64,000 nt of DNA from an uncultured Anaerolineales bacterium (GCA_964651245.1 CAZYVI010000016.1:11492-75491); one strand, 5' to 3'. Shown: positions 4,021-24,770, numbered from the stretch's first letter. The notes: a model not told the origin generated them from the sequence alone. Numbers and translations: made by a program.

Positions 4021-4097
<77 letters not shown>

Positions 4098-4153: not shown

Positions 4154-7100
4154 TCAGGGCCGCCGGCGCGGCCAGTCCAGGTTGGCGCATGCGATCGTGC
4201 GGGCCACGGCGGCGTAGATGCCGGCCAGCTGGGATGGGTCCGGTGCCTCGAAGAAGTCGCCCGGGCTCGTGGCCAACTGCGTGAGCAGCGCGTAGTCGAG
4301 CTCGGTCGGGCTGCCGAGCCCGATCACGAAGAGCCGCGCCACCTGGGACTTGACCCGATCGGCCTGGACCACGATCGCGGCGTCGTCGATCTCGCTCTCG
4401 CCGTCGGTGAGCAGGACGACGGCCCGGGTGTGGTCCGGCGCGGCGCTCGGCCCGGTGAGCTCGTCGTACGCGGCGCTGAGACCGAGGTCGAGCCGCGTGC
4501 CAGCCGCTGTCTGCAGGCCGGCCAACTGGGTGAGCAGGAGCGCCTGGTCGCCGGTCATCGGCTGCACCAGGGTCGCCTCGCGGTTGAAGGCCACGATCGA
4601 GGCGCGGTCGCTGGGTCGCATCCGCTCGATGAGGGCCGCCGCCGCCGACACCGCCGCCGCCAGGCGCGTCGGACCGCCCTCGTGCACCGGCTCGGCCATG
4701 CTGCCCGAGTTGTCCATGACGATGACGACGTCGGTGGCGATGTCGGCCGACTCGCACGACTGGCGCAGCGTGATGGGCAGGTAGACCGGCACGGGGATCG
4801 CTGTCGCGGTCGGGCGCGGCGTCACGGTCGGCAGCGGCGTGAAGGTCGGGGTGACCGTGGGCTCGACGTCGAGCACCGCCACGATCGGGACCGGAAAGCG
4901 CAGCTGTCCTGGCCGGGCGAGCCCGTCGACGAACACGGCGTGGGCCTCGACGTTCGTGGGCCGCTGGCCGCGCGCGAGGGGCTCGACGGTATAGGCGAGT
5001 CGGACGCCGCCGAACGGCACGTCGACGAGGTCCCAGCGCAGCGTGCGGCCGGCGACGACGGGCGCCGGGCCCGCCACGGACGCGACATAACGCATGTCGG
5101 CCGGCAGCTCGTCGGTGATCGAGAGCGACCGGGCGAGGACGTCGGCTGTCAGCCGGTTGGCGATCTCGGTGTAGATGGCGGTCAGGGTGTCGGCCGAGGC
5201 GGCGATGTAGGCGTCCTCGGGCGTCGAGGCGGCCAGCGTCATGACCATCGGATCGACCTCGCCGAAGCCGATCGTGAAGATCTGGGCGCCGGCCTGCTTG
5301 GCGGCCGCCGCCGCCAGCAACGTCTCGTCCGGGCCGCGGCTCGGCCGCCCGTCGGTCAACACGATGACGACGGGCTTGGCGTCGTCGCGGCCCCGCGGCC
5401 CGAACAGCTCGGCCGCCGCCGCCTCGATGGCCTGGGCGATATCGGTGCCGCCGAGCGGCTGGAGGGCCGCGATGGCCGCCCGCGCGGCCGAGGGATCGTT
5501 CGTCAGCGGCTGGACCAGCGCGGCCGTGTTGTTGAAGGCCACCACCGCCACCCGGTCTTCGGCGAGGTCGATCGCGTCCAGGAAGGCCGTCGCCGCCGCG
5601 CGCGTGGCCGTGATGCCGTTGCCCTCGGTCATCGAGAACGAGCGATCGATGGCCAGCACGATGTCCGCCCGGGGCAGGGTGTTGGGGCACTCGCCGCCGA
5701 CGAGCAGCTCGACCGTGACCTGGCCGCCAAGCCGCAGGCTGGCCGGCGCGGCGCGCTTGTCGCCCCGCACCCGGCACGCCCCGCCGCGCGCTTGCGGCGG
5801 CTCGCCGCTGCCGTCCGGATCGCGCTCCCAGACGCGCACGGTGTGGCCGGCGCGGTCGAGGGTGTAGACGCGCCCGGCGCCGTCGACGGTCAGGTCGACG
5901 ATGTCGGTGCCGCTGGCCGAGAACGCGCCGGCGTCCCAGGCCGAGCGGGCAACGCCGTCCGCGGCCAGCTTCCAGACCAGGCCCTCGGTCGTCAGCACGT
6001 ACAGCGCGCCCGCGGCGTCGACGCTGACGCGGGTCGGCACGCCGTCGATCGGCCAGCGGGCGATGCGCGCGCCGGCCTCGAATACGTCGACGGTGTGCCC
6101 GGTGCGGTTCACGGCGTACAGCCGTTCCGGCTGACCCGCGGCCGCTGGGCGGCGCGCCACGTCCCAGTACAGCTGCCAGGGCTCGTCGGCCGCCAACAGT
6201 GGGAAGCCGCCCGCCGGGCGGAGCGTCGTCGTCAAGCCGACGTCGCGGGCCATGGCGTAGGCGCCGTCTGCCGCGCTCAGTCGGGTGTCGTCGGCCTGCA
6301 GCGACAGGCCGGTGACCCACCAGCGCCGGCCGGTCGGCCCGAGCTGCAGCGTGGCCTCGACGGCGCCCGCCGCGGTGAGCCGATGGAGGCGGCTCAGCTC
6401 CGCCGTCACCAGCCGCCCATCGCGCTGGACGCCCAGGTCGACCGCCGGCTGCGGCAGCGCCAGCTGGCCGCCGGCGCGGCCGTCGGCGCCGAACCACTGC
6501 GCCCGGGGCCAGGCGTCGGCGACCCAGATCGCCCCGTCCGGCGCGGCGGTGATCGCCGCCGGCTGGTGGAGACGCCCCAGCGGGTAGCCGGTCAGCCGCC
6601 ACGGCGTCGCCACCGCGCCCTCGCGCGGCCGCCACGGGAAGCGGACGATGCCGTGGAACTGCGTGCTCGGTCGGGCCGACGAGGCGTAGACGCCGAACGC
6701 CGACGCCACCGCCAACCCCTGCAGGCCGTCGTAGTACAGCGCCGCCGTCGAAGCGGCCTTGCCGCTCTCGAACCAGTAGACGACGTCGCTGGCCATGATG
6801 TAGAGATCGCCGCGCTCGTCGAGCGCCGCCTCGAGCGGCGGCCGCGGCACGGCCTGGCGCGCCACCTCGCGTCCGGTGGCGTCGTGCACCGTCACGAGGT
6901 TGGCGCCCGTCTGGGCGACGACCAGCCGGCCGTCGGGCGCGAACGAAACACCGGTCGGCCGCGCCAGGCCTGACAACCGCGCCACGGCGTTCGCGGTCGC
7001 GTCGAACACCGTGACCGTCCCCCGCTCTGGCTGGCTGACGGCGACGCGCCCGGCGGCCGCGGCCACGCCCCAAGGCGACTGCAGCTCCTCGGAGCGCCAC

Positions 7101-7540
7101 TGCGCCACCGGGGCGCCGGAGGCGTCGAACACGAGCACGGCCGGCCGGCCCGGATCGGTGACGTACACCCGCTCGCCGCTCGCCGCGACGTCGCGCGGGG
7201 CGCGGAAGTCGGCGTCGCCGCCCCCGCGCTGTCCCCACGCCGACACGAACGCGCCGTCGGTCGTGAACGACTGCACCCGGCCGTTGCCACGGTCGACGAC
7301 CCAGACCCGACCCGCCGCCAGGTCTACGCCGCCCGGGTCGAGCAACGACCCGGGTGCACCGACGCCCTCGCCCAGCCAGGTGTCGACCAGGCGGTAGGAC
7401 TCGGGCAGGTTCGGGCCCTGGGCCCGGGCCGCGCCGCCCGCCAGCCGCACGGCCAGCACGCCGAGGCCGAGCAAGGCTGCGGCGGCGACGGACGTGCCGG
7501 CGCGTCGGCGGGCCGTGGTCGTGGATCGGACGTGGCGCAT
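4154..7540 (-). CDS. Secreted NHL-repeat beta-propeller protein with two vWA domains (paralog 1)
   Basis: ATG at 7540 is preceded by GGGAGG. The signal peptide is '[40 protein letters not shown]'. NHL-like repeats follow ('[18 protein letters not shown]'), then '[11 protein letters not shown]...GGECP...[11 protein letters not shown]' (MIDAS DxSxS) and a Pro/Thr linker '[26 protein letters not shown]'. The second vWA is '[11 protein letters not shown]...TDGESE'. The protein ends '...[12 protein letters not shown]'. Confidence 0.8.
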
Positions 7541-7662
7541 GTCAGAGCCTCCCACCCCGCAGGGTGCGCGCAAGTCGGCAGTTGGGAGCGCGGCCGAGCG
7601 ACCGCCACCGGCCGACGCAGAGTCTATCGACACCACCGCGGCCGAGCCAGGTTCAGGGCGGG

Positions 7663-10600
7663 CTACGGCGTCCGGCGGTCGCACGGCAGATCGCGGGCGA
7701 TGGAACGGAAGATGCGCTCGAGGTCCTCGGCGTCCGGCGCGAGCAGCAGCTGCGTGGGTCGCGAGGCCACCCGCTGCAGCAGCGCCGCGTCGACGTCGTC
7801 GCCGAGGCCGATGGCGTACACCTCGGCGCCGGTCGCGCGCAGCGCGGCGGCCTGGGCGGCCACCGCGTCGGCCGTCGTGCCCGTCGGGCGTCCGTCCGTC
7901 AAGACGACGGCGGCGCGCAGGACGTCCGAGCCGCTCGGGCCGCCGGCCAGCGCGGCGGCGGCACTCACCAGACCGAGGTCGAGGCGCGTGCCGGCGCCGA
8001 CCTGGAGGCCCGCGAGCGCCGCGTCCAGCCGGCCGCGGTCGGCGGTGAACGGCTGGGCGAGCCGCGCCGTGTGGTCGAACTGGACCAGCGCGGCCTCGTC
8101 GCGGCCGAGCTCGAGGGCGTCCAGCAGCGTCCGCGCCGCGGCCACGGCCGCCTCGAGCTTCGTCCGGCCGGCGCGGGTCAGGGCGGTCATGCTCGACGAC
8201 GTGTCGAGGGCGAGTACGACGGCCAGCCGCGCGCGGGTCGGCTCGCAGCCGCGCGCCGCGACCGGCAGATAGATCGGCCGCGGCACCGGCGTCGGTCGGG
8301 GCGTCCCCGTCGTCGTCGGCGTCGCGGTGGGCGTCGCGCTCGGGCGCGCCGTCGTCGTTGCGGTCGGGGCCACGACCTCGACGACCGGCACCGGGAACAC
8401 GACGCGCCCCGGCGCGCCGAGGCCGTCGTTGCCCTCGGCCACCGCGACGACGTTCGTCGGATGGACGCCGGTCTCGGTCGGCTCGAGCTCGTAGCGCAGC
8501 TCAGTCCCGGTGAGCGGCACGTCGGCCAGTCGCCAGACGAGCCGCGGGCCGTCGATGGCGGGTGCCGGTTGGCCGGAGCCGTCGACGTAGCGCATGTTGG
8601 CGGGCACCTCGTCGACGACGGTGACGCTGCGGAACAGCACGCTGGCGGCGAGACGCTCGGCGATGCCGCGGTAGATGGCCTCAAGCGCCGCCGCGTCCGG
8701 CGCGAACGCGTAGTCGCCGGGCGACGAGGCCAGGTCGCGCAGCAGCGGCTCGTTGACGCCCGCGCCGAAGCCGACGGTGAAGATGCGCCCGCCCTCGAGC
8801 TTGGTGAGCTCCGCCTCGCGCTGCGCCGTCTGCGCGTCCGAGCCGCCGTCGGTCAGCAGCACGACCACCGCGTTCGCCTGTGGCCGCCGGCGTGGACCGG
8901 TGAGTTCCTGGCGGGCCGCCGTCAGGGCGCGCGCGATATCGGTGCCACCGCCGGCCTGGAGGCCGGCCACCGCCGCGACCACGGCCGCCGGGTTCGACGT
9001 CAGCGGCACCTCGAGCGTGGCGTCCTGGTTGAACGCCACCAGGGCTGTCCGCGCCTCGACGACATCGATCGCGGCCAGGAACGCCGTGGCCGCGGCCTTG
9101 GCGGCGTCCAACTTGGCGCCGATCATCGAGCCCGAGACGTCGAGAACGAGGACGATGTCGGTCGCCGACCGCACCGGCGGGCAGTCGCCGTCGATCTGCA
9201 GCGTGACCGTGGTGCGCTCGCCGAGGACGAGCCGGGTCGGCAGCGCCCGCTTGTCGCCGCGGGGCGCGCAGCGGGGCTCGAACGACGGCACGTCGCCCGG
9301 CGCGGCGGCCGGATCCGGCTGCCACACGGTCACCTCGTCGGCGGCGCTGTCGACGACGACGACCCGGCCCCGGGCGTCGACCGTGAGGTCGGTCGGCGTC
9401 GACGGTGCGCCGTCGCGCGCGACGCGCCACACGGCGCGCAGCGCACCGCTGTCGTCGTAGCGCCACACCCAGCCGTGACGGTTGAGCACGTAACCGTTGC
9501 CCGCGTCGTCCGAGGCCACCCGCAGCGGCTGGCCGGGCACCGTCCACGCCGACTCAAGCCCGAAGTCACCGCCGCGGCGCCATTCGATCGTGCCCGCGGT
9601 CCGGTTCACGACCCACCAGCCCCCAGGTCGAGGCGCGAGGTCCCACAGCGCCGTGAACACGCCGGGCGCCGACTGGAACGAGGTCGACCCTGCCGGCCCG
9701 CCGCCGGCGTCGAACCGCTCGAGGCGCTGCCGGCCGACGTCGAGAACCGTCGCCGCGCCGTCGGCCGCGTCGACGTGGAGGGCCCGCGCCCACGGCACGC
9801 CCCCCGTCGCCGGCAGCGGCGCGCGCCAGCGCAGCGAGCCGTCGGTGCCGATCCGCTCCACCTGCGCGTCGCGGACCACGACCACGCCGTCGGCCGTCGC
9901 GGCGACGTCGTTGACGTCGCCGATCGGCGCCTGGTCGACCGGTTGCCCGTCGAGGTCGTAGTGCTGCGCGCGGCGCCATCGGTCCACGATCCGGAGCCCG
10001 TCGCGCCCGGCGACGAGCATCGGCTGGTCCAGCAGGCCGAGCGGCACGGGCACCGTGCCCCACTCGTCGATCAGCTGCGTCCCGCGCCACACCCGGACCC
10101 CGTGCAGCGGCCGGGTGTCGTCGCGCAGCGACGTGAACACCGTGCCGTCGGCCGCGACGGCGACGCCGGCGATGCCCGCAGCCGGCAGCCGCGCCATCCG
10201 CGCCGGCAGGCCGGGCGACGTGTCGCGACTGACGGCCGCGTCTGGCCGGCCAGCAGCGCCCGACTCGGTCGACCAGAGCGTGCCGTTGGGCGCCACGACC
10301 ACGTCGTGGACGGCGGCGCCCAGCGGACCGCTCGAGTCGATGGCGACGCCCGCGGCGTCGAACACCGAGAGCCGCTGGTTGCCCGTGTTGGCGACGACGA
10401 TGCGCCCGTCCGGCAGCACCGCCAACCCCTCGGGACGGTTGAGCGCGTCCCCGCCGCCGAACACGCCCCACGTCGCGCGCCGCTCGCCGCCGGCGCCGAA
10501 GACGGCGATGCGGCTGGCGCGGTTCTCGCTGACGAACACGGTCCGTCCGTCGGGCGAGGTGGCCACGCCCCACGGGCCCGCCAGGCCGCTCCAGGCGCCC

Positions 10601-11022
10601 CGGTAGACACCGTCGATGCTGAAGACGGCGACGCGCTCGTTGCCCGTGTCGGCCACGAAGACGCGGCCACCGCTCAGCGCCACGCCGCGCGGGTTGGCCA
10701 GCGCCTCGGGCGCCGCGTCGCCGCCGATCGTCCGGACGAACCCGCCGGCGCGGTCGAACACCTGAACGCGGTCGTTGCCGCTGTCGACGACGAGCACGAG
10801 GTCGTCGAACGGGTCGACGGCGATACCGCTGGGCGACTCGAACGCCGTGGGGGGCAGCGGCAGCGCCGCCGACGGCCAGGTGGCGGCGAGGCGCCATCCC
10901 TCCCGTGCTTGCGCCGACGAACCGACCGGCCGGGCCCCCGCGGGGGCCCGGCCGGTCGTGACGGCAAGCGCGGCGAGAAGGAGGATCGGTCCGGCTGCGC
11001 GCCGGCGACGCCCCGCCGTCAT
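7663..11022 (-). CDS. Secreted NHL-repeat beta-propeller protein with two vWA domains (paralog 2)
   Basis: Same architecture as 4154-7540. Signal peptide 'MTAGRRRRAAGPILLLAALAVTTGRAPAGA'. NHL repeats ('LVLVVDSGNDRVQVFDRAGGFVRTIG'). 'CAPRGDKRALP...DGDCP...IVLVLDVSGSM', then PT linker 'TATTTARPSATPTATPTTTGTPRPTPVPRPIYLP', then 'LAVVLALDTSSSM'. The C-terminus is '...DLPCDRRTP'. There is no clear SD, so the start is approximate. Confidence 0.8.
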   Translation of the reverse strand: MTAGRRRRAAGPILLLAALAVTTGRAPAGARPVGSSAQAREGWRLAATWPSAALPLPPTAFESPSGIAVDPFDDLVLVVDSGNDRVQVFDRAGGFVRTIGGDAAPEALANPRGVALSGGRVFVADTGNERVAVFSIDGVYRGAWSGLAGPWGVATSPDGRTVFVSENRASRIAVFGAGGERRATWGVFGGGDALNRPEGLAVLPDGRIVVANTGNQRLSVFDAAGVAIDSSGPLGAAVHDVVVAPNGTLWSTESGAAGRPDAAVSRDTSPGLPARMARLPAAGIAGVAVAADGTVFTSLRDDTRPLHGVRVWRGTQLIDEWGTVPVPLGLLDQPMLVAGRDGLRIVDRWRRAQHYDLDGQPVDQAPIGDVNDVAATADGVVVVRDAQVERIGTDGSLRWRAPLPATGGVPWARALHVDAADGAATVLDVGRQRLERFDAGGGPAGSTSFQSAPGVFTALWDLAPRPGGWWVVNRTAGTIEWRRGGDFGLESAWTVPGQPLRVASDDAGNGYVLNRHGWVWRYDDSGALRAVWRVARDGAPSTPTDLTVDARGRVVVVDSAADEVTVWQPDPAAAPGDVPSFEPRCAPRGDKRALPTRLVLGERTTVTLQIDGDCPPVRSATDIVLVLDVSGSMIGAKLDAAKAAATAFLAAIDVVEARTALVAFNQDATLEVPLTSNPAAVVAAVAGLQAGGGTDIARALTAARQELTGPRRRPQANAVVVLLTDGGSDAQTAQREAELTKLEGGRIFTVGFGAGVNEPLLRDLASSPGDYAFAPDAAALEAIYRGIAERLAASVLFRSVTVVDEVPANMRYVDGSGQPAPAIDGPRLVWRLADVPLTGTELRYELEPTETGVHPTNVVAVAEGNDGLGAPGRVVFPVPVVEVVAPTATTTARPSATPTATPTTTGTPRPTPVPRPIYLPVAARGCEPTRARLAVVLALDTSSSMTALTRAGRTKLEAAVAAARTLLDALELGRDEAALVQFDHTARLAQPFTADRGRLDAALAGLQVGAGTRLDLGLVSAAAALAGGPSGSDVLRAAVVLTDGRPTGTTADAVAAQAAALRATGAEVYAIGLGDDVDAALLQRVASRPTQLLLAPDAEDLERIFRSIARDLPCDRRTP

Positions 11023-11035
11023 CGGGTCGAGTGGC

Positions 11036-13363
11036 TCACGGCCGGTCGCGGGGGCACGGGATGAGCCGGGCGATGTCGCGGTAGATCAGCTCGAGGTCGT
11101 CGGTCGTCGGGGCGTGCCGGTAGTTCTCCGGCGTCGTCGCGATGGCCCGCAGCAGGTCGGCGTCGATGTCCGACTCGAGCCCCAGCCCGACCGTGAACAC
11201 CGCCACGTCGGCGGCGCGCAGCTGGTCGGCCAGCTGCCGGACGCGCGCATCGTCGCCGTTGTTCACGCCGTCGGTGACCAGCACGATCGAGCGCGTGCTG
11301 CCCGGGCGCCGCCGCGGGCTGTCGAGCTCGTCGATCGCCGCCTGCAGGGCGCGATCGATGAACGTGCCCTGCGCTTGCAGCGACGGCACGCGGTCGAGCG
11401 CCGCGTCCACCGCCGAGCGGTCGCCGGTCAGCGTGGTCATGACCGTCGCGTTGAGGTTGAAGGCGATCACCGCGGCCTGGTCGCCGCTGCCGTCGGCGTT
11501 CAACTTCAGCAGACCGACCAACGTCTTGCCCGCGACGATCGCCGCCTGAAGCTTCGACTGCGACCCGCCGGTGGTGCCGCTCATCGACGTCGAGTTGTCG
11601 ACGACGATCGCCAGGTCGACGCGCTGCAGCTCCGGCGGACACGGGTCGACGGTCGCGGTTGGCGTCGGCTCGGGCCAGCTGCGAATCGCGATCGGGAAGT
11701 ACCGCGCCTCGGGCGTCGGCGTGTCGGTCGGCGTGGCGGTCGGCGTGACGGTCGGCGTCGGGGTCGACGTCGGCGTCTGGGTCGGTGTGGGGGTAGGCGC
11801 CACCACGTCGATGAAGACCTGCGGGAAGACCGCCAACCCGTCCCCGCCCGTGGACTCGTGCCACTCGGCGGCGGCCAACTCGCTGACCGGCAGGCTGCCG
11901 GCGGCCAGCGGCCGGACCCGATAGGACATCGTCATCCGGCCGGTGACCGTCATGAGATCGGTCACCCGGATGCCGCTGCCCGGCGTGATCACCGAGTGCG
12001 CCCAGTGCCAGTTCGTCGTGGTCACGGGCAGCGACGGATGGACGCCCCACCACTCGGTGCGCGGGCCGCGCACGACCGAAGCGGGCGGGTTCGCCGCGCC
12101 GTCGAGCGCCATATCCGGCGCCACGGTGTCGTGCACGAGCAGTTGATCCATGCGCGTCGGAACGGCGGTTGAGAGCTCCTGCTGGTACAGCTCGAAGATC
12201 TGCTTGAGCTCGCGGGCGCTGAACGCGTAGCGGCCCTCGCTGGCGAGCTGGTCCAGGCGCCGGCGCCACGAGCCGCGACCCACGAACACGGTGACCACGT
12301 CGATGTCGTTGCCGACGCGGGCCCGCGCGAGGTCCCGCGAGCAGAACGCGCCGTCGGACAGCACCAGGATCACCTTGCGGCGCTCGCTGTCGGCGCCCTT
12401 GTTCTTGTTCGGCTTCAGGAGCTCGGTCTCCGCCTGACGGAGGCCGAGATCGACCCGCGACAGCCCCTGTCCGGTCAGCCGATTGCCCGAGGTCCCGACC
12501 CGCTTGCCCAACTCGCCGGTGTTGAGGCTGAGCAGCGTGCGTCCACGGTTGCCGAACGCGGCGAACCCGACGCGCAGCAGGCCGGAGTCCAGGTCCGCCT
12601 CGATCTGCGGATCGCGCAGGAACTCCTGCATGAACTTCGACACCTCGCGCAACAGGTCCTCGGTGCCGGCGGGCTCAGGTTCGGCCGGGCGGTTCGGACC
12701 GCCCGGCGACATGTCCGTCGGCACGCTCGGCGGGCCGGGGTTCGTGTCGGGGGTCTTGGTCGGCGGCGCCTGATCGGGCGCCCACAGCGCGCCGAGGCGC
12801 GCGACGAGCGGTGCGGGCGGCACCGGGTCGGGCGGACCGCCGCGCGGCGTCGGCGTCACCCGCGGCGCCGGCGTGCCGGGCTCGATGCCGCCGCCGACCG
12901 GCGTCGTGATGCAGCCCGGCGGCTCGCCGCGGTCCCGGCCCACGTTGTTGCCCCCGCCCGGTTCGCCGGGCTCGCCCGGCCCCGGCCCCGAGGTGGGGGC
13001 CGGCGGAGCCGGCTCCGACGGATCCGGCGTCGGCGGCGGCACCCGCGGCGTGGTCGTGGGCAGTTCGATGCTCGCGCGCTGGCGCGTCATCGAGTGCGAC
13101 TCGTCCGCCAGGATCATGATGTCGATGGGCACGCGCTTGGCGACGCAGGTCTGCGTGAACACAAGCGTGACCTGCGTCGTCTGGCCGAGGATCAACTCGG
13201 TGGGATCCGCCGACTTGAAGGCACCGGCGGTGCACAGCGGCGCCTCCGGCGGCGCGCTGCCTCCTGGCTGGGCGAACGGCGCCGCGCGGGTCAGCGCGGC
13301 GAACGACAAGAACGCGACGGTCAGTGGGGCCAGAGCCAGCCCCCAGCGGCGGATACGGCGCAT
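11036..13363 (-). CDS. Secreted double-vWA protein with long Pro-rich/PT linkers (paralog 3)
   Basis: ATG at 13363 is preceded by AAGGAG (11-nt spacer). Signal peptide 'MRRIRRWGLALAPLTVAFLSFAALTRA'. 'C...DPTELILGQTTQVTLVFTQTC...IDIMILADESHSM', then a proline-rich linker of about 120 aa, then 'TPTPTQTPTSTPTPTVTPTATPTDTPTP', then 'LAIVVDNSTSM...VLVTDGVNNG'. The C-terminus is '...LIPCPRDRP'. Confidence 0.8.
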   Translation of the reverse strand: MRRIRRWGLALAPLTVAFLSFAALTRAAPFAQPGGSAPPEAPLCTAGAFKSADPTELILGQTTQVTLVFTQTCVAKRVPIDIMILADESHSMTRQRASIELPTTTPRVPPPTPDPSEPAPPAPTSGPGPGEPGEPGGGNNVGRDRGEPPGCITTPVGGGIEPGTPAPRVTPTPRGGPPDPVPPAPLVARLGALWAPDQAPPTKTPDTNPGPPSVPTDMSPGGPNRPAEPEPAGTEDLLREVSKFMQEFLRDPQIEADLDSGLLRVGFAAFGNRGRTLLSLNTGELGKRVGTSGNRLTGQGLSRVDLGLRQAETELLKPNKNKGADSERRKVILVLSDGAFCSRDLARARVGNDIDVVTVFVGRGSWRRRLDQLASEGRYAFSARELKQIFELYQQELSTAVPTRMDQLLVHDTVAPDMALDGAANPPASVVRGPRTEWWGVHPSLPVTTTNWHWAHSVITPGSGIRVTDLMTVTGRMTMSYRVRPLAAGSLPVSELAAAEWHESTGGDGLAVFPQVFIDVVAPTPTPTQTPTSTPTPTVTPTATPTDTPTPEARYFPIAIRSWPEPTPTATVDPCPPELQRVDLAIVVDNSTSMSGTTGGSQSKLQAAIVAGKTLVGLLKLNADGSGDQAAVIAFNLNATVMTTLTGDRSAVDAALDRVPSLQAQGTFIDRALQAAIDELDSPRRRPGSTRSIVLVTDGVNNGDDARVRQLADQLRAADVAVFTVGLGLESDIDADLLRAIATTPENYRHAPTTDDLELIYRDIARLIPCPRDRP

Positions 13364-13676: not shown

Positions 13677-13744
13677 TCGTCATCGGCTGTGCGGGCGGGC
13701 GACGGCAGGCGCCGTGGGCGCCGCCGGGCTGCCCGTGTCGGACC

Positions 13745-15676: not shown

Positions 15677-16212
15677 ACGTGTGGTCTCCTTCTCCCTCGT
15701 CCCTGTCCGCATCCCGCGCCGCCGGTCGCCTTGGGTGTGCACAAGGCGACCGGCGGGCACGGCGCGGCTCGTCGACCGCGGCCACGCCCCGCCACCGTCC
15801 TCGCGCGTCGCTTCGAAGGGCCGACGGTTGGATCGGGTGGCAACGGCGCCACCGCGGAGCGGCGCCTGGGCGGCAGTATAGGTCTGCCGCCAGCAAGTTG
15901 TCAACGACTCGTCAGGATCCGGTCACGTTGGGCCGTTGGCGCACGTTGTCCATGAAAAGGTGGCCCGACGCAGGTTCCCGTCGCCCGAAGAGCCGGTCAC
16001 ACCAGGAGGGCGATTGGCTATCGCCGTATCCCTTCCGACGTTAATAACCCGTGACGGCGACGTTGTGGACACCCCGGACCGAAACCCGGTCCGGGTCGGC
16101 GCCGTCACGGTTCGTCGGCCGCGACCGTAGCGGTCGGCGCAGCGCATCGTCACCATTCGCATGGCCGGGTCGCGGCGAGGGTCGCGGGCCGATCTCGAGG
16201 AGGAGCCGACGG

Positions 16213-17670
16213 ATGAAGGAACCCAGCTGTGGTCGCCGGCCGGCCCGCATCGCCGCTGCATTGGCGCTCGCCGCCGCGGCGGCCGGGGGCGTTGCCGCTC
16301 TCCCGTCGCATCGGCTGTCGGCCCAAGAGCCACTGCAGTGCGTGATCAGCGGCACGAAGACGGCGTCGCCGGCGCGCATCCGACTGGGAGAGTCGGTGCA
16401 GATTCGGCTGACGCTGTCGGCGGCGTGCCCGCCCGCGCAGTATCGCTCCGCCGACATCGTGGCCGCGATCGACACCAGCCTGTCGATGAACAGCCTCGGC
16501 AAGCTGGAGGCCGCCAAGCAGGCCGCACGCAACTTCGCCGACAACCTCGACTTCTCGCTGCAGCGCATGGGGGTGCTGAGCTTCTACGGCAGCGCCCGAA
16601 TGCTGATCGGGCTGTCCGCGGATCCGGTCGCCATCAAGGCCGCCGTCGATGCGCTGCCGATCGACCGCGGCACGAACATCGCCAATGCCATCGACACCGC
16701 CCAAGAAGAGTTGTCGCGCAACGGCCGGGCCGATGCGCGCCCCGTCATCATCCTGATCACCGACGGCTCGCCCAACGAGCCGGCGAGCGGTCCGGAGCAG
16801 GCGGCGATCCTGAGCGCCAACGCGGCCAAGGTTGCCGGCACCGTGATCTACACGATCGGCCTCGGGAGCGGCGCGGCGGAGACGCTGCTCAAGCAGATCG
16901 CCTCGGGTCCGGAGTACTACTTCTTCGCGCCGGGCAACGCCGACCTCGACGCGATCTACGAGCAGATCGCGCTCGTCGTCGCCAACTACACCGTGCGCAA
17001 CGTCGGCCTCACCGACGACCTGGGGACCTGGATGCCGTTCGTGGCCGGCTCGGGCGCCCCGGCGCCGACCGTGGCGGCCGACGTCCTGGGCTGGGGCGTC
17101 GACCCGCTGACCGAGATGCCGGTCGAGCTGGTCTACGAGATCAAGCCGACGAAGGTCGGTACGCACCCAGCCGCCGACCGCACCGCGGCCCGCTACGTCG
17201 ACCTCGACGGGGTGGTGCGGGAGTTCGTGTTCGCGCAGCCGATGGTCGAGGTGCTCGATCCGCCCAACGCGTGCGGCGACGGTCGCGGCTGGAGCATCAA
17301 CGTCCAGTCGTTTCCCGACAGCGTGGGCGTGTCGTCGGTGCGGGCGCAGGGCTGCAACCTGCGCTTCGACGCCGGCGACTGGGCCACGGGCACGGCCTAC
17401 CGCCTGCCGCCCTTGGAGTTCGTGCTGACGGACGGCACCGGCACCAAGGAGCTGTTCCGCGGCTCCGCCGTCCAGAGGCCGGGACGCGTCGACCAGTATC
17501 TGCCGATCCGCGTCTGCCAGCCGCCGCCCTACAAGCTGCGGCTCGTCACGACCGAGCTCAACGGCTACCAGCTCTGCCCCAACGCGTGGCGCGAGCGGAC
17601 GATCACGCTGCGCGACTTCCGGCCGGTGAACTTCCGCAACACGCTGGAGCGCTACGGCTTCGTCCGCTGA
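16213..17670 (+). CDS. Secreted single-vWA protein (paralog 5), divergent from the tandem array
   Basis: ATG at 16213 is preceded by GAGGAGGAG. Signal peptide 'MKEPSCGRRPARIAAALALAAAAAGGVAALPSHRLSAQ'. 'C...ARIRLGESVQIRLTLSAACP...IVAAIDTSLSM...ILITDGSPN' with a 'IYEQIA' terminal helix, then a C-terminal beta-rich domain. Confidence 0.8.
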   Translation: MKEPSCGRRPARIAAALALAAAAAGGVAALPSHRLSAQEPLQCVISGTKTASPARIRLGESVQIRLTLSAACPPAQYRSADIVAAIDTSLSMNSLGKLEAAKQAARNFADNLDFSLQRMGVLSFYGSARMLIGLSADPVAIKAAVDALPIDRGTNIANAIDTAQEELSRNGRADARPVIILITDGSPNEPASGPEQAAILSANAAKVAGTVIYTIGLGSGAAETLLKQIASGPEYYFFAPGNADLDAIYEQIALVVANYTVRNVGLTDDLGTWMPFVAGSGAPAPTVAADVLGWGVDPLTEMPVELVYEIKPTKVGTHPAADRTAARYVDLDGVVREFVFAQPMVEVLDPPNACGDGRGWSINVQSFPDSVGVSSVRAQGCNLRFDAGDWATGTAYRLPPLEFVLTDGTGTKELFRGSAVQRPGRVDQYLPIRVCQPPPYKLRLVTTELNGYQLCPNAWRERTITLRDFRPVNFRNTLERYGFVR

Positions 17671-17677
17671 GGGCGCT

Positions 17678-19498: not shown

Positions 19499-19740
19499 CG
19501 CGGCGGCTCGGCGGGCCAGGCGGTGGCGTCGCCGCCGTCGTGCACGGAGGAGCGACGGCGCCCTTCGGCGGGCGGCGCGCAAGTGTAGCACAGCCGCGGC
19601 GGCCGCCTGTGGCGCGCCGCGACCGCCGCGGCGCAACCGCGCGCCCCAGATCGGCGTACACTTGGCCGGCCTGCCCGGTGGGCGGCGCCAACGTATCGGA
19701 CGCACCGCACGTGCCTCCCGACCTCAGGAGATGGACGATC

Positions 19741-20343
19741 ATGGACGAGACCCCCCCCGTTCCGCCCGGCACCGAGACGACGCCGCCCAGCCCCGGCCAG
19801 CGCCTGGCCGGCGCCGCCGACGAGATCCTGCACGATGCCCAGCGCCTCCTCGACAAGGCGGGCGACAAGGCCGACGAGGCGATCGATCGCCTCGACGAGG
19901 CCTCGGGCGCGGCGCGCGAGCGCGCGACACAGGCCGCCGAGGGCGTGATCGAGGAGCTGCGCGGCATCGGCAGCCGCCTGGCCAGCGCCCTGCAGGCCGC
20001 GGCGACGACGCCCGAGGCGGAAGGGCTCAAGAACGACATCCGCGAGGGCGCGCAACGCCTCGTCAACGAGCTGCAGGCGGCGATCAAGTCGTCGCCGATC
20101 GCGAAGATCGGTGGGCGGGCCGAGACGGGCGCCGCCGCGGCCGATGCGCCGACGGACGCGGCGGCCCCGTCCGCCGCCGCCCCGACCGCGCCGCCGTCGC
20201 AGCGCGTGGCCTCGACCGTTCGCGTCGAGCTCGCGAGCGCGCTGCGCAGCTTGAACCGCGCCCTCGACCGCCTGGCGGGCCAGCTCGCCCCGGACGCCCC
20301 GACCGCCACGTCGGCCGACGGCGACGATGCGCCCCGGGCCTGA
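19741..20343 (+). CDS. Hypothetical Ala-rich alpha-helical (apolipoprotein/phasin-like) protein
   Basis: ATG at 19741 is preceded by a GGAG SD 10 nt upstream. Repetitive amphipathic segments ('AADEILHDAQRLLDKAGDKADEAIDRLDEASGAARERATQAAEGVIEELRG'). No catalytic motifs. Confidence 0.5.
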   Translation: MDETPPVPPGTETTPPSPGQRLAGAADEILHDAQRLLDKAGDKADEAIDRLDEASGAARERATQAAEGVIEELRGIGSRLASALQAAATTPEAEGLKNDIREGAQRLVNELQAAIKSSPIAKIGGRAETGAAAADAPTDAAAPSAAAPTAPPSQRVASTVRVELASALRSLNRALDRLAGQLAPDAPTATSADGDDAPRA

Positions 20344-21601: not shown

Positions 21602-21622
21602 GGGGCGCGGCCCCGGCGCGCG

Positions 21623-22123
21623 TCAGCCGGACGCGGCGACGCCGTCGGTCGGGGCGTCGGCGGTCAGGGCGCGGCTCTTGAGGAGGATCTCCCAGCGGCC
21701 GCGCTGCACCACGTCGCCGTGCTGGTTGTGGAGCTTGATCATGAACGTCACGAGGCCGCCGCCCAGCGCCCGCGCCAACTTGGTCTCGACGACGTCGATC
21801 TCGAGGTAGACGGTGTCGCCCGGCACGACGGCCTTGCGGAACTTCCAGTCGAGCCCGAGGAAGGCCAGCGTCGTGCCGTCGATGATGTTCATCCGCGCCG
21901 CCAGCCCGGTGGCGATCGAGAGGCCCAGCACGCCGTGCGCGATGCGCTGGCCGTACGGCGTCGTCGCGGCGTAGCCGTCGTCGGTGTGCAACGGGTTGTA
22001 GTCGCCGGAGAGGCCGGCGAACGCCTGGATGTCGTGGTCGGTGATCGTGCGCGCCGGGCTGCGGCCGCTGAAGCCAGCCTGAAAGTCCTCGAACCACAGG
22101 CCCTGCGGCCCTTCGACGCGCAT
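21623..22123 (-). CDS. MaoC-like (R)-specific enoyl-CoA hydratase / hot-dog fold dehydratase
   Basis: ATG at 22123 is preceded by AGGAGGAC. 'FAGLSGDYNPLHTDDGYAATTPYGQRIAHGVLGLSIATG' is the MaoC dehydratase signature. Confidence 0.8.
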   Translation of the reverse strand: MRVEGPQGLWFEDFQAGFSGRSPARTITDHDIQAFAGLSGDYNPLHTDDGYAATTPYGQRIAHGVLGLSIATGLAARMNIIDGTTLAFLGLDWKFRKAVVPGDTVYLEIDVVETKLARALGGGLVTFMIKLHNQHGDVVQRGRWEILLKSRALTADAPTDGVAASG

Positions 22124-22221
22124 CGTGTCCTCCTGGCCGACCCGAGCGGCGGCGCCGCGATTGTAGGCACGGCCTCGACCGACCGCAACCAACCTCGGCG
22201 GCGGCGACCTACAATGGGCGG

Positions 22222-22923
22222 GTGGAACGCAGCACGAGGCGGTCGTGGCGGCGGCAGGCCGGGCGGTGGATGGGCGGCGTTGCGGCGCTGGCCGTGGCGG
22301 CCTGTGGTCCCGCGGTGGCGCCGCCGACGAAGCGGGTGCCGCTGCCTTCGGTGGCGGGCGACGGTCCCGTTCCGGCGTTCGCCGCCGACCTCGACCACGG
22401 CGCGCGCCTGTTCGCCCGGCACTGCGCCCGCTGCCACGGCGAGGGCGGGGCCGGGGACGGTGTGCTGGCGGCGGGGTTGTCGCCGCCGCCGTCGGATTGG
22501 ACCGCGCCCGACGCGCTGCGCGAGGTGGCACCGGCCGAGCTCTATCGGTCGATGTGGCGCGGCAAGCTCGGCACCTCGATGCAGCGGTTCGATACCGTCC
22601 TCGATGAGGCGTCGACATGGGATGTCGTCTTCCATATCTGGTCGCTGGGCGCCGACGCGGCAGCCATCGAGTCCGCGGCGGCGTACGACCGGCACTGCCA
22701 GGCCTGCCACGGGCCGCACGGCGTGCCGGGTAGCGCGGCGCCCGGCCCGCCGTTGCTCCGACCGGAATGGGTCGCGCAGAGCCGCGCCTGGCTCGAGGCC
22801 ACGGTGGCCAGGGCCCATCCCGGCCTCGACGCCGGCGCGCGGGCGGCGGCCAGCGAGCGCATCTGGCAGTTCCTGACCGTCCCCGCCGCGGACGGGGCGA
22901 TCCGATCGGCGCCGGCGCGATGA
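22222..22923 (+). CDS. Di-haem c-type cytochrome, probable lipoprotein
   Basis: Two CxxCH motifs ('CARCHG', 'CQACHG'). The N-terminus is 'RRSWRRQAGRWMGGVAALAVAAC' (positively charged n-region, hydrophobic core and a lipobox-like AVAAC). The start may be the GTG at 22222 or the ATG at 22270. Its stop overlaps the next start (ATGA at 22920-22923). Confidence 0.7.
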   Translation: MERSTRRSWRRQAGRWMGGVAALAVAACGPAVAPPTKRVPLPSVAGDGPVPAFAADLDHGARLFARHCARCHGEGGAGDGVLAAGLSPPPSDWTAPDALREVAPAELYRSMWRGKLGTSMQRFDTVLDEASTWDVVFHIWSLGADAAAIESAAAYDRHCQACHGPHGVPGSAAPGPPLLRPEWVAQSRAWLEATVARAHPGLDAGARAAASERIWQFLTVPAADGAIRSAPAR

Positions 22924-24770
22924 GCCCGGTCCCCCCCGTGGCGGCGCGGCGGGCCCGACGGGCGGCCGCCGGGGCGCTCGTGGCGTCGGCGGCGCTGGCG
23001 CTGGCGGCGACGGGGCGGCTGCCGGCGGCCGCCGAGGACGCATCGCCGTGCCCCGCGAGCGCGACACGGACCGTGGCGCCGGCGACGGTAACGGTGGGCC
23101 AGCCGGCGACCGTCACCGCCGTGCTGCGGATCGGCTGCCCGGCGCTGGCGGGACCGCTCGACGTGGCCCTGGCCCTGGATCGGTCGGCGTCGATGCTCGG
23201 CGAGTCGTTGGCGGCGGCCAAGCATGCGGCGGGCGTGTTCGTCGACGTCGCCGAGCTCGGACGCGTCCGGGTGGCGGTCGTCGCGTTCGACGACCGGGCG
23301 ACGATCGAGGTGCCGCTGTCGAGCTGGCACAGCCGGCTGCGCGGGGCGATCGCGTCGATCCAGGTGCCGCCGGCGGCCGGCACCGACCTCGTGCGCGCGC
23401 TCGCCGCCGGCGGCCGGGCGCTGGATGCGGGCGCCGGCGATGGCCGCGCCGGTCGGCTGGCGGCGATGATCCTGCTGACGGACGGGCAGAACAACGGCGG
23501 CCGCGTGCCGGTGTTGCAGCAGGCGGCCGTCCAGCGCGCCAACGGCGTGCACCTGACCACGATCTCGCTGGGACGGCGGGCCGATCGCGACCTGCTGGCG
23601 CAGGTGGCTACGACCCCGGCCGACCACTGGCCGGCGCCCACCCGCGACGACCTGGCCGCGATCTACGCCCGGCTGCCCGGCCACCTCGATCGCCTGGCGG
23701 TGCGGTCGATCGACATCGACGACGTCGTCGGCGCCACGCTCGCCCTGCGCGAGGGCACGTCGCGGCCGCCCGCGTCGCTGGCCGGCGGCCGGCAGCGGTT
23801 CACGATCCCGGCCGCGGCGGCGGACGCGGTCACGATCACCTACGGCATCGTGGCATCGCAGCCCGGTCGCTGGCCGGTGAGCGCCGGCACCCAGGCCATC
23901 TACACCGACGTCACCGGCCGGACCGGATCCGTTGCCGTGCCGGTGCCGATCCTCGAGGTGGTGGCCGTGCCGACACCGGGTACCGCCGCGCCGGCCACGG
24001 CCACGGCCGCGCCGACGAGGCCCGGCGAGCCGACCACGACGCCGACGGCGACGGCGGCGCCGCCCACCGCGACGGCGACCGCGGCCCACCCGCCGCCGGC
24101 CACCGCCGCTGCCACCGCGACCGCCACCCCCGGCGCCGCGCGCCACCGGCGGTTCCTGCCGGTGGCACTGGCCGGCGCCTGTCTGCCCGGCGCGGTGCCG
24201 CTCGACCTCGTCGTCGTCGTCGACACCTCGACGACGATGTTGGGCCGGACGGCGAGCGGCGAGCGCAAGCTCGACCTGGCGGTCGACGGGATCGGGCGGC
24301 TCGTGGACGGCCTGTCGGGGCGGGCGTCGACGCGGATCGGCGTCGTGCGGTTCAGCGCCGCCGCCGCCGTGTGGTCGCCGCTCACCGCGGACCTCGCGGC
24401 CGTCCGGCGCGCGCTGGCCGAGCCCATCGCGGCGGGCCAGGGCTCGCGCATCGACCTGGGGTTGCGGCTCGCGGTCGACCTGTTCGCCGACGACACGACG
24501 GCCGGGCCGCCCTACCGGGCGGTCGTGCTGGCCTCCGACGGCCTCGTGTTCGGCGCCACGCCGGCCGATGTGCGCGACGCCGCGGACAGCGCGCGGCGTC
24601 GCGGGGCCGTGGCCTACGCCGTGGGGGTCGGGCCCGGCGCCGATCGGGCGCTGCTGGCGGCGGTAGCCGGCGACGCGAGCCGGACATTCGACGCCGGCGA
24701 CGGCGATGGGTTCGCGGCGGCGTTCCGCGCCGTGGTGGCCGCGCTGCCGTGTGCGCGCGCGGCGCCGTGA
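22920..24770 (+). CDS. Secreted double-vWA protein (paralog 6), translationally coupled to the cytochrome c gene
   Basis: The ATG at 22920 overlaps the upstream stop. Signal peptide 'MSPVPPVAARRARRAAAGALVASAALALAATG'. 'SPCPASATRTVAPATVTVGQPATVTAVLRIGCP...VALALDRSASM', then Pro/Thr/Ala linker 'TPGTAAPATATAAPTRPGEPTTTPTATAAPPTATATAAHPPPATAAATATATPG', then 'LVVVVDTSTTM'. The C-terminus is '...ALPCARAAP'. Confidence 0.8.
   Translation: MSPVPPVAARRARRAAAGALVASAALALAATGRLPAAAEDASPCPASATRTVAPATVTVGQPATVTAVLRIGCPALAGPLDVALALDRSASMLGESLAAAKHAAGVFVDVAELGRVRVAVVAFDDRATIEVPLSSWHSRLRGAIASIQVPPAAGTDLVRALAAGGRALDAGAGDGRAGRLAAMILLTDGQNNGGRVPVLQQAAVQRANGVHLTTISLGRRADRDLLAQVATTPADHWPAPTRDDLAAIYARLPGHLDRLAVRSIDIDDVVGATLALREGTSRPPASLAGGRQRFTIPAAAADAVTITYGIVASQPGRWPVSAGTQAIYTDVTGRTGSVAVPVPILEVVAVPTPGTAAPATATAAPTRPGEPTTTPTATAAPPTATATAAHPPPATAAATATATPGAARHRRFLPVALAGACLPGAVPLDLVVVVDTSTTMLGRTASGERKLDLAVDGIGRLVDGLSGRASTRIGVVRFSAAAAVWSPLTADLAAVRRALAEPIAAGQGSRIDLGLRLAVDLFADDTTAGPPYRAVVLASDGLVFGATPADVRDAADSARRRGAVAYAVGVGPGADRALLAAVAGDASRTFDAGDGDGFAAAFRAVVAALPCARAAP

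Follow-up and report, generated by a model that had tools for sequence, protein, structure and literature searches.

Six neighbouring paralogous genes, here called V1 to V6, form an old, syntenic and chromosomally fixed set assembled from known domains in an uncultured filamentous, Ardenticatenales-like member of the Anaerolineae (Chloroflexota), from which a stretch of 64,000 nucleotides, the window, was analysed. On balance, V1–V6 are best explained as a conserved set of exported, disulfide-stabilised and metal-ion-dependent vWA proteins, which would carry out MIDAS-based adhesion or matrix assembly, probably in non-redundant roles and possibly as a hetero-complex.

The window has a GC content of about 75%, and spurious ORFs are abundant in it. 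GC3 frame analysis supports the six frames and strands of V1–V6, and exactly those, with ATG as the start codon of each gene, as placed in the first-pass annotation. For V1, V4 and V5, a public collection contains gene calls whose products have exactly the same length and sequence. By frame analysis and these gene calls, the six neighbouring paralogs are real genes; SD-like sequences lie 5′ of V1, V3, V4 and V5. The same annotation had spoken of a six-fold expansion. Read as a recent amplification, this does not hold, since the vWA cores of the paralogs are only 21–49% identical to one another, while 1:1 orthologs at 45–83% identity occur in at least eight Anaerolineae MAG loci in the same order, with V5 diverging from V4-V3-V2-V1 and a cytochrome c gene preceding V6. 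In loci L001 to L010, these orthologs keep a fixed order, the score of the best paralog being two to six times that of the second best. By sequence comparison, the six genes are anciently diverged and not the outcome of a recent expansion.

The identity of the central domain is well supported. Pfam VWA/VWA_2 matches (PF00092/PF13519) in V1–V6 have E-values of 1e-20 to 1e-43 (74–150 bits against a cutoff of 23.8) and define 11 vWA domains, two stretches each in V1, V2, V3, V4 and V6 and a single one in V5. The MIDAS residues DxSx[ST]...T/S...D, the last being the D of [TS]DG, align in all 11, with variants in the first domain of V3 (S for T) and the second of V6 (DxSTT, S for T), the latter kept in three orthologs; among 39 V4 homologs, they are invariant or at least 90% conserved. 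In AF2 models, both vWA regions alternate strands and helices, with pLDDT mostly above 90, fitting an alpha/beta Rossmann-like fold, and Foldseek matches them to the vWA domains of TEM8/CMG2 (TMt 0.78–0.85, rmsd 2.3–3.5 Å). These results agree in placing the MIDAS-like motifs inside true vWA folds. The NHL repeats (PF01436) proposed for two members were also recovered against a cutoff of 20 bits, in V1 with 57 bits over one stretch and in V2 with 89 bits over three. The structural form of the NHL family is a closed six-bladed propeller.

Module A, the first of the recurring elements, is present once in each of the six proteins and consists of a beta-hairpin bracketed by C-x28-C, a vWA domain and the remainder of a beta-sandwich; the Cys-bracketed module first described is found in all six, with an exact C-x28-C spacing. 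With the hairpin before the vWA domain and the rest of the sandwich after it, the order looks like that of a sandwich into which a vWA has been inserted, and the AF2 models (pLDDT 83–84) give the order hairpin, vWA and 7–8 beta-strands, with a disordered PT linker. This insertion topology, together with MIDAS geometry and Cys proximity, is deduced from secondary-structure order and fold matches. In V1 (1128 aa; 4154..7540, minus strand), module A spans aa 589 to about 905 (nt 4826–5776, minus; Cys589/Cys618), behind a signal peptide and an NHL-containing propeller region (aa 41–585, nt 5786–7420, minus). V2 (1119 aa; 7663..11022, minus) likewise starts with a signal peptide and a region of three NHL stretches, its module A hairpin lying at nt 9181–9270 (minus; Cys585/Cys614). 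Directly after DESHSM, the first vWA of V3 (775 aa; 11036..13363, minus) has an insert of about 165 aa, rich in P, G and T and with a conserved (E/D)PPGC (about nt 12578–13087, minus). V4 (643 aa; 13745..15676, minus) has its module A at nt 14606–15538 (minus), and its first vWA contains extra Cys pairs that covary (C137–C149, C201–C231 and C222–C227). V5 (485 aa; 16213..17670, plus), divergent from V4, has neither PT linker nor module B, and its module A (aa 43–348, plus) is followed by a rare C-terminal 4-Cys beta domain (aa 350–485, nt 17260–17667, plus). V6 (616 aa; 22920..24770, plus) begins with module A (Cys44/Cys73). V1, V2 and V6 have only four Cys each, all at the positions of the two modules, and the columns C47/C76 and C414/C624 (V4 numbering) are occupied in 38–39 of 39 homologs, so both Cys pairs are conserved. 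The module had also been described as usually repeated twice, but the Cys hairpin precedes the first vWA only, and the second vWA belongs to a different cassette; there are two distinct cassettes, A and B, and not one repeated module.

The RGD tripeptide reported for V1 and V2 lies at aa 592–594 of V1 (nt 5759–5767, minus), in the motif C-R-V-R-G-D-K-R-A, and at aa 588–590 of V2 (nt 9253–9261, minus), and these are indeed the same alignment position. Its conservation, however, is confined to the V1 lineage (7/7 V1 orthologs versus 1/8 V2 orthologs), and the equivalent residues in the AF2 models of V4 and V5 are predicted to fall in strand A (48–56 and 44–52), not in a loop, whereas an integrin-type RGD ligand motif would lie on an exposed loop and bind a MIDAS site. 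Since about 0.5 RGD is expected per 1100-aa protein of such composition, its presence alone is not significant.

Module B ends V1, V2, V3, V4 and V6, and runs from a PT linker through [IV]YLP, a Cys, a vWA domain and a terminal Cys to the end of the protein. It extends in V1 from VYLP at aa 920 to Cys1118 (nt 4187–4783, minus), in V2 over nt 7681–8271 (minus; Cys926/Cys1114), in V3, after a PT linker and YFP, over nt 11054–11701 (minus), in V4 over nt 13805–14467 (minus), next to a PT linker at nt 14468–14596 (minus), and in V6, after a long PT/A linker and FLP, over nt 24153–24752 (plus; Cys421/Cys611), with the conserved variant MIDAS DxSTT...S...D. In these five proteins, the second vWA is preceded by the linker and by the 'P[IV]YLP'-type element noticed earlier, the latter as [YF][LF]P[IV]. 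Both Cys of the second vWA are found in all five copies, one 12–14 aa before the MIDAS Asp and the other 5–20 aa from the C-terminus. Across 39 homologs, C414 never varies and C624/625 occurs in 39/39, and in the AF2 model of V4 they are placed five residues before strand 419–426 and three residues after helix 608–621, respectively. This conservation and placement are consistent with the N-to-C disulfide clasp that had been suggested, with the bond itself predicted. Such a clasp resembles that of vWF A1/A3.

Module B could alternatively be a lineage-specific surface-display or docking cassette that uses its MIDAS to tether varied secreted passengers to one shared receptor. V1–V6 would then be those members that carry module A, alone or together with NHL, as their passenger, and V5 or another protein could act as receptor or anchor. 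A regex-based census, biased towards loci retrieved with the module B pattern itself, found the module in 77 complete ORFs from the window and 55 Chloroflexota loci; the last Cys lies within 16 aa of the end in 63 of them and within 48 aa in all, and the 45 aa upstream contain at least 40% P+T in 74. Per MAG, the number of module B genes runs from several to 10 or more, and their passengers vary, from NHL with module A or module A on its own to a duplicated 'GPGGPGAIYRIDL' domain, among others. The YLP residues are conserved (P407 invariant, Y405/L406 at least 90%) although AF2 gives this stretch no structure. Against this, the receptor is only hypothetical, a C-terminal vWA could equally be a second ligand-binding head, and the literature searched held no precedent for sorting or docking by a vWA domain. 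We consider this explanation possible but rather unlikely.

The arrangement of the genes bears on whether the proteins act together. V4, V3, V2 and V1 are co-directional, with intergenic gaps of 381, 13 and 122 bp, and a sigma-70-like TTGACA-18-TATACT that lies roughly 200 nt 5′ of V4 (15875..15904, minus; 11/12 positions matching) is a candidate promoter of this unit; it is the sole such site in 14 kb, where shuffled sequence gives a mean of 0.2. On the other side, the stop codon of a di-haem c-type cytochrome gene (22222..22923, plus; two CxxCH, lipoprotein-like N-terminus) overlaps the start of V6 (ATGA), and the two genes adjoin, co-oriented, in three loci (L001, L002 and L004). The GT-C genes expected beside the set are found 3′ of V6, where a SAM methyltransferase (24916–25932) is followed by three PMT_2/DUF2298 membrane-protein genes, namely a GT-C-like PMT_2+DUF2298/Chlor_Arch_YYY protein (25929–31391), a DUF2298 protein (31388–33898) and a PMT_2 protein with three NHL stretches (33907–38214). 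All four are co-directional with V6 on the plus strand, each meeting the next in an ATGA overlap or across a gap of 8 bp, and this group (24916..38214) is a candidate for glycosylating the PT linkers. Convergent with V1, a gene for a Wzy_C (O-antigen-ligase-like) membrane protein of 942 aa (1035..3863, plus) keeps its place next to V1 in five loci (L002, L003, L004, L005 and L010). The block is syntenic throughout, with LepA, MBL and MaoC included, and as it takes in housekeeping genes such as LepA, the conserved Wzy_C and GT-C neighbours may reflect general synteny and not a functional link. In line with the first-pass annotation, Pfam detected no MoxR, kinase or above-cutoff DUF58 partner among the window genes, and PADLOC anti-phage defence models matched V1–V6 with 0 families.

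The same synteny leaves room for V1–V6 to be independent adhesins or binders, each recognising an external ligand of its own, be it a polysaccharide, a mineral or another cell, and without a complex, their order being that of the block as a whole. The divergence of the heads (21–49% identity) and the differing accessory domains, namely NHL, the V3 insert and the V5 C-terminal domain, would suit distinct specificities. Adhesin repertoires, however, usually turn over and do not keep strict 1:1 orthology, and V3 and V2 are separated by just 13 bp behind a single promoter-like site; the absence of V3 alone from two loci that retain the other members fits either view. We regard this account as comparably improbable. 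Since every paralog has been retained in single copy and at its place in the gene order, non-redundant roles are probable for the preferred set of cooperating proteins, and a hetero-complex is possible.

The six proteins had been predicted to carry signal peptides, and all have Sec-type N-termini by heuristic sequence features, with an n-region of net charge +3 to +5, an uncharged h-region of 12–19 aa and AXA-like sites, from which we infer that V1–V6 are exported. A 19-mer scan found no hydrophobic segment beyond the N-terminus in any of them, and none of the anchoring signals LPXTG, lipobox, TM or SLH was found, which counts against the preferred reading. Another reading would make V1–V6 substrate adhesins of a gliding apparatus in filamentous Chloroflexota, comparable to the vWA adhesins CglB of Myxococcus and TRAP of Plasmodium. 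vWA adhesins mediate Myxococcus gliding, and the machinery of gliding Chloroflexota is not known (PMC13104615); TRAP is also among the Foldseek hits. The homologs, however, were seen only in Anaerolineae-class MAGs, whereas the lineages known to glide, Chloroflexus and Herpetosiphon, yielded none, and no motor or Glt-like gene lies nearby among the window genes, making a gliding role very unlikely.

Among the closest structural relatives are pilus-tip vWA adhesins, namely RrgA (2ww8), SpaC (6m3y), PitA (7w6b), GBS104 (3txa) and Mfa5 (6to1), which are the top Foldseek matches of V5 and V4. V5 has its best overall fold matches here (TMq 0.42–0.44 to SpaC/PitA; Mfa5 with E 1.6e-21). Like V4 and V5, these extracellular proteins nest a MIDAS vWA in a beta-sandwich and carry further beta domains after it. 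Sequence identity is only 12–18%, however, and the V proteins lack LPXTG/sortase, pilin partners and the lipoprotein-type processing of type V pili, and they have predicted disulfides; their PT linker with a second, terminal vWA is missing from the pilus-tip adhesins. That V1–V6 are themselves sortase-assembled tip adhesins of the RrgA/SpaC/PitA type, as the V5 fold matches and the vWA-in-sandwich topology might suggest, is hardly credible: the missing sorting signals contradict this identity, as the C-terminal LPXTG, hydrophobic segment and charged tail are all absent, the proteins end 5–20 aa past the last Cys, and Pfam finds no sortase or backbone pilin genes in the 64 kb.

Other extracellular vWA proteins share parts of the design. 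The best PDB sequence-profile matches are PTMP1 (4cn8; E 9e-41), collagen VI alpha2 (1.6e-22) and vWF A3 (about 1e-12), with further Foldseek or profile matches to integrin alpha1/alpha2 I domains, integrin beta3 and 4fx5. PTMP1 has two vWA domains, as do five V proteins, but in a different relative orientation (rmsd about 20 Å), and the V set differs from metazoan matrix and collagen-binding vWA proteins in being bacterial, with a sandwich-nested first vWA and a PT linker. Integrin beta, with many Foldseek hits, resembles module A in that its vWA-like beta I domain is inserted in the beta-sandwich hybrid domain; its ligand binding is MIDAS-dependent, and propellers belong to the same system, as NHL does in V1 and V2. 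In contrast to integrins, V1 and V2 carry a propeller of the NHL type within their own chain, and the V proteins have no TM, cytoplasmic tail, PSI or EGF domains. When vWA and beta-sandwich are superposed as one rigid body, the best fit is to 4fx5, a structural-genomics vWA protein of Catenulispora acidiphila (TMt 0.57, rmsd 4.5 Å over 355 columns), and ArnB/VWA2 (8s05, 5a8j) also superposes over both (TMt 0.51–0.55 for ArnB), but 4fx5 and ArnB lack the Cys hairpin, PT linker and module B, and ArnB acts in the archaeal cytoplasm as a regulator whose partner is the FHA protein ArnA. A cytoplasmic or regulatory identity of the Mg-chelatase ChlD, MoxR/BatA or ArnB-like type, suggested by the JGI label 'Mg-chelatase subunit ChlD' on homologs, by the ArnB fold matches and by low-scoring NCBIfam matches (BchD-ChlD, BatA, cobaltochelatase), has a negligible probability, as all NCBIfam scores are far below their cutoffs (TIGR02031 for ChlD/BchD 19.5–22.7 bits against 499.6; BatA and BatB 31–66 bits against 350–380, BatA reaching 66 against 380), no AAA+ domain, MoxR, above-cutoff DUF58, FHA or kinase was found, and signal peptides and paired Cys point to export.

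For V1–V6 as a cooperating exported set, the export route, disulfides, glycosylation, MIDAS ligands and complex formation would fit together as follows. After Sec export and oxidative folding, module A would form a head in which a MIDAS vWA is inserted in a beta-sandwich whose first hairpin is pinned by the C-x28-C disulfide, a layout shared with the beta I/hybrid pair of integrins and with the pilus-tip adhesins of Gram-positive bacteria and of type V pili. Except in V5, a spacer rich in Pro and Thr, probably extended and O-glycosylated, would lead from the head to the disulfide-clasped second vWA of module B; V1 and V2 would add their NHL propeller regions, and V5 would have its rare 4-Cys beta domain in place of module B. 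The MIDAS sites would bind acidic side chains of protein ligands, and candidates for these are fellow members of the set, further surface proteins and external substrates. Domain type and location suggest a role in adhesion, matrix or S-layer, and on the surface of the filament the set may form an assembly for adhesion or matrix building.

The array comprises six genes for secreted vWA-domain proteins: V1 (4154-7540), V2 (7663-11022), V3 (11036-13363) and V4 (13745-15676) on the reverse strand and V5 (16213-17670) and V6 (22920-24770) on the forward strand, each with an ATG start. The window has a G+C content of about 75%, with overlapping ORFs in several frames throughout, and the coding frame was chosen by a GC3/GC2 frame plot, which supports one frame per region and exactly the six genes that the first-pass annotation had named. 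Public gene calls on a 109-kb contig agree with the V1, V4 and V5 products at every residue, and GGAGG-like sequences lie 5′ of the V1, V3, V4 and V5 starts. The G+C content falls to 0.68-0.71 in the stretch of V4, V5 and LepA (14000-20000), compared with 0.73-0.79 elsewhere.

Pfam identified VWA or VWA_2 domains in all six proteins (E-values of 1e-20 to 1e-43), two each in V1, V2, V3, V4 and V6 and one in V5, so that the folds first read from motifs are borne out for 11 domains; the NHL repeats ascribed to two members were likewise found, in V1 (57 bits) and V2 (89 bits, three repeats). The first-pass annotation had described one module, usually repeated twice. Alignment of the six proteins retains a Cys-bracketed module in every member, but places it once per protein and assigns the second vWA domain to a different cassette. 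The former, module A, is present in one copy in each protein and begins with a Cys, eight residues, [AD]P, a strand with LG[EQ], a second strand and a further Cys, the spacing of the Cys pair being exactly 29 residues in all six; after another 5-8 residues follow the DxSxSM metal-site motif (MIDAS), the vWA domain and about 90 residues of beta structure carrying motifs such as ‘GxxPTN’. The latter, module B, occurs in V1, V2, V3, V4 and V6 and is absent from V5. It consists of a Pro/Thr-rich (PT) linker, the element [YF][LF]P[IV] (in these five proteins the form taken by the ‘P[IV]YLP’ that had been noted, with the linker, before the second vWA), a Cys 12-14 residues before the MIDAS Asp, the second vWA domain and a terminal Cys three residues past the last helix, the protein ending 5-20 residues further on.

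AlphaFold2 models of V4 (39-sequence alignment, pLDDT 83.4) and V5 (33 sequences, pLDDT 83.7) place strands before the first vWA at residues 48-75 and 44-71, respectively, and seven or eight strands after it. On our reading of this secondary-structure order and of the fold matches, module A would be a vWA domain inserted into a beta-sandwich. The module B linker of V4 (residues 361-403) is modelled as disordered (pLDDT <50); in place of module B, V5 has a C-terminal beta domain with four Cys, about 125 aa long.

Cysteines are sparse and regularly placed: V1, V2 and V6, proteins of 616-1128 residues, have only four each, every one of them at the two module positions. Across 39 aligned sequences (V4, 37 homologs and V6; V4 numbering), C47 is present in 38 and C76 in all; C414 is invariant and the terminal Cys, which falls in either of two neighbouring columns, is found in 39/39, in agreement with the conservation proposed for a clasp around the second vWA. 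C47 and C76 bracket an antiparallel hairpin; C414 flanks beta1 at its start and C624 the last helix at its end, positions whose equivalents are bridged in vWF A1/A3. The additional cysteines of the first V4 vWA are lost pairwise (C137/C149, C201/C231 and C222/C227 covary). These patterns have the look of disulfide-bonded extracytoplasmic proteins, the bonds themselves being predicted from them. The signal peptides attributed to all six are upheld by heuristic features only, namely N-termini with a net charge of +3 to +5, an uncharged core of 12-19 residues and AXA-like sites; outside the N-terminus, V1-V6 contain no hydrophobic 19-mer, lipobox or LPXTG. RR pairs occur in the N-termini but fit the Tat pattern S/T-RRxFLK poorly, and the paired cysteines would favour Sec over Tat export. 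A cytoplasmic role for the V proteins is contradicted.

The MIDAS residues, DxSx[ST], a Thr or Ser and the Asp of [TS]DG, are kept in 11/11 vWA domains and are invariant or at least 90% conserved among V4 homologs, and metal-dependent ligand binding at both ends of the proteins is therefore likely; the variant MIDAS of the second V6 domain (DxSTT...S) is itself kept in V6 orthologs. In V3, a Pro/Gly/Thr-rich, low-complexity insert of about 165 aa (aa ~93-262; ~12578-13087, reverse strand) directly follows the DxSxSM of the first vWA, and is thus located at the ligand-binding face; it measures about 150-170 aa in all V3 orthologs examined and contains a conserved (E/D)PPGC motif. The RGD tripeptide, claimed as conserved in V1 and V2, does occupy the same alignment position in both, right after the first Cys, and ‘CR[VL]RGDK’ is invariant in 7/7 V1 orthologs; in V2 orthologs, RGD persists in one of eight, the others having GGD, NGD, SGD, VGD, SGN or DGR. 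The position lies in strand A of the V4 and V5 models, and about 0.5 RGD per protein of such size and composition is expected by chance. The V1 RGD is taken here as a conserved feature, but not as an established integrin-like ligand.

Foldseek matched V4 to PTMP1 of the mussel byssus, which has two vWA domains (E 1.5e-23), to Mfa5, ArnB, SpaC, PitA, RrgA and GBS104, to integrin beta subunits, ITIH1 and CMG2/TEM8, and to 4fx5, an uncharacterised Catenulispora vWA protein (TMt 0.57, rmsd 4.5 Å over 355 columns); V5 as a whole is nearest to Mfa5, PitA and SpaC (TMq 0.42-0.44). A V4-family sequence profile retrieved PTMP1 (9e-41), collagen VI chains, vWF A3 and the I domains of the collagen-binding integrins alpha1 and alpha2, all of them extracellular adhesion or matrix proteins. 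The nested topology is also that of the pilus-tip adhesins, but these rely on sortase signals, which the V proteins lack, and this argues against V1-V6 being pilus tips. To such proteins the V set would add a bacterial vWA nested in a beta-sandwich and apparently braced by disulfides, without sortase or isopeptide chemistry.

None of V1-V6 reached a curated NCBIfam cutoff for any family, and PADLOC returned no match for the six. The JGI name for homologs, ‘Mg-chelatase subunit ChlD’, is a misnomer, since the BchD/ChlD score is 19.5 bits against a cutoff of 499.6. Public annotation already calls the V proteins ‘VWA domain-containing protein’, and every part is of a known domain kind; literature searches on von Willebrand proteins in Chloroflexi, Anaerolineae and Ardenticatenales, on DUF2298 and on Chloroflexus gliding returned nothing on the V family, nor any description of its architecture, of the fixed six-gene set or of the terminal cassette.

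The six-fold expansion first proposed does not stand as a recent event. All-vs-all comparison of the 11 vWA cores, as had been suggested, gave mutual identities of 21-49%, and in related Anaerolineae MAG loci (L001-L010) each vWA ORF has one clear best counterpart among V1-V6 (for V4 orthologs, a score of 500-990, with the next paralog at 160-190), with the order V5(←) V4 V3 V2 V1(→) kept. Together these argue for an ancient set of specialised paralogs. V3 is missing from L005 and L010, and the longer order V6-cytochrome c-MaoC-MBL-unknown-LepA-V5-V4-V3-V2-V1-Wzy_C is found in L001, L002 and L004. The V1 ortholog of L001 (GCA_016703025.1, 18001-21510) is split between two frames, matching V1 aa 21-620 and 620-1128, through either a frameshift or an assembly error; among the public calls in this region, two ORFs on the opposite strand are probably spurious. 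The MAGs that carry V4 homologs are labelled Ardenticatenales, Caldilineae, Anaerolineae, ‘Anaerolineales’ and Ca. Epilinea brevis, and the window LepA is 87-89% identical to that of three Ardenticatenales MAG loci.

V4, V3, V2 and V1 run in one direction, separated by 381, 13 and 122 bp. About 200 nt 5′ of V4 is TTGACA-18-TATACT (11/12), the one sigma-70-like site in 14 kb, and V5 is divergent from V4. V6 starts within the stop codon (ATGA overlap) of a gene for a di-haem c-type cytochrome (22222-22923, forward strand; CARCH, CQACH) with a lipoprotein-like N-terminus (AVAAC); the two are apparently translationally coupled, and the pair is kept in L001, L002 and L004. A metagenome scan with V6 orthologs returned paralogs only. 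After V6 come a 145-bp gap, a SAM methyltransferase gene and genes for three giant polytopic membrane proteins of the forward strand (GT-C genes): a PMT_2 and DUF2298/Chlor_Arch_YYY protein (from 25929; 1820 aa, about 19 hydrophobic segments), a DUF2298 protein (31388-33898; 836 aa) and a PMT_2 protein with a C-terminal three-repeat NHL propeller (33907-38214; 1435 aa), the latter two framed by GC3 phase. These three genes follow one another with ATGA overlaps or an 8-bp gap, and a weak PMT_2 protein (40301-42685; 794 aa, 12 segments) is the fourth of the cluster (25929-42685). A special link between the NHL region of the GT-C protein and the V1/V2 propellers was rejected, the similarity being generic (~30%).

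At the other end, a Wzy_C/O-antigen-ligase-like membrane protein (1035-3863, forward strand; 942 aa) is encoded convergently with V1 here and in five other loci; it scores 30 bits, weakly, against the exosortase-associated putative O-glycosylation ligase TIGR03097 (cutoff 188). The host lineage is generally considered to be without LPS. Wzy_C-family enzymes include protein O-oligosaccharyltransferases, and Pro/Thr linkers are classic O-glycosylation sites of PMT-type enzymes in Actinobacteria; glycosylation of the PT linkers could reasonably be proposed as a candidate role of the PMT_2 and Wzy_C neighbours, although their adjacency may be mere block synteny. Genes for tRNA-Met (CAT), tRNA-Gly (TCC) and tRNA-Pro (TGG) at 3822-4096 lie directly 3′ of V1 on the same strand, and tRNA-Met overlaps, on the opposite strand, the last ~40 nt of the Wzy_C ORF, whose 3′ end is therefore uncertain. 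These tRNAs were the only RNA matches in Rfam, which gave no regulatory RNA in the array. As the first-pass annotation had reported for MoxR and kinase partners, neither is present in the 64-kb window, nor are DUF58, sortase or pilin genes. The window further carries secD (50468-52237) and secF (56256-57224), with genes for a CBS-pair protein, an ABC ATPase and two ABC-2 permeases between them.

Module B extends beyond the array. In the window and 55 Chloroflexota loci retrieved by the module-B pattern, a sample biased by that retrieval, 77 complete ORFs contain it; the protein ends within 16 residues of the last Cys in 63 of them and within 48 in all, and 74 have at least 40% Pro+Thr within the 45 residues upstream. 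The N-terminal parts vary, from NHL plus module A to module A alone and others, among them a duplicated ~450-aa ‘GPGGPGAIYRIDL’ domain, and the pattern suggests that module B may serve as a common cassette for docking or anchoring. A search for module-B-only proteins gave mostly short fragments and little extra passenger diversity. The ~450-aa passenger domain also occurs in a secreted 579-aa protein of the window (38318-40057, reverse strand), which has no Pfam match; this copy (‘GPAGPGAIYAIDI...’) is 32-49% identical to the N-terminal passengers of about 30 module-B proteins from other Anaerolineae loci, and after it come a PT-rich linker and a C-terminal domain of another kind, with four Cys in ~75 aa. 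The C-domain of V5 (aa 350-485; 17260-17667, forward strand) is a confidently modelled beta domain with four invariant Cys; it has no match in Pfam or among PDB sequences, and out of 1.84 billion cluster representatives its profile retrieved only 84 (E≤1e-3). Some of these have it C-terminal to an S8 subtilase, and others are an SH3_3 protein, a propeller-vWA protein and small secreted proteins of ~200 aa; it appears to behave like a rare accessory binding domain.

The description of V1-V6 as secreted adhesin-like vWA proteins is sustained for protein type and location, adhesion being their putative function. The mechanism that we favour is extracellular binding through the MIDAS sites, by modular proteins braced by disulfides and extended by linkers, with V1-V6 probably acting as a conserved set, in a complex or matrix. 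Less likely alternatives are that they are independent adhesins or members of a module-B display system; a role as gliding adhesins or as pilus tips is improbable. Beyond the conserved-set mechanism, we consider it rather unlikely that the terminal cassette is a new surface-display or docking system of Anaerolineae-class Chloroflexota, tethering dozens of unrelated secreted passengers per genome, with V5|V4-V3-V2-V1 and cytochrome c-V6 as the core hetero-oligomeric scaffold of a surface layer and the PT linkers glycosylated by the adjacent GT-C and Wzy_C enzymes.

Activated sludge, sediments and hot springs harbour abundant filamentous Anaerolineae and Ardenticatenales, most of them uncultured, and to our knowledge almost nothing has been characterised of their cell surface, filament cohesion or attachment. 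The six conserved, single-copy, eukaryote-like vWA proteins are a candidate surface-adhesion or matrix apparatus, and the stereotyped C-terminal vWA cassette of many secreted proteins is a further candidate for such a surface apparatus; both are targets for proteomic and structural studies and for heterologous binding assays.
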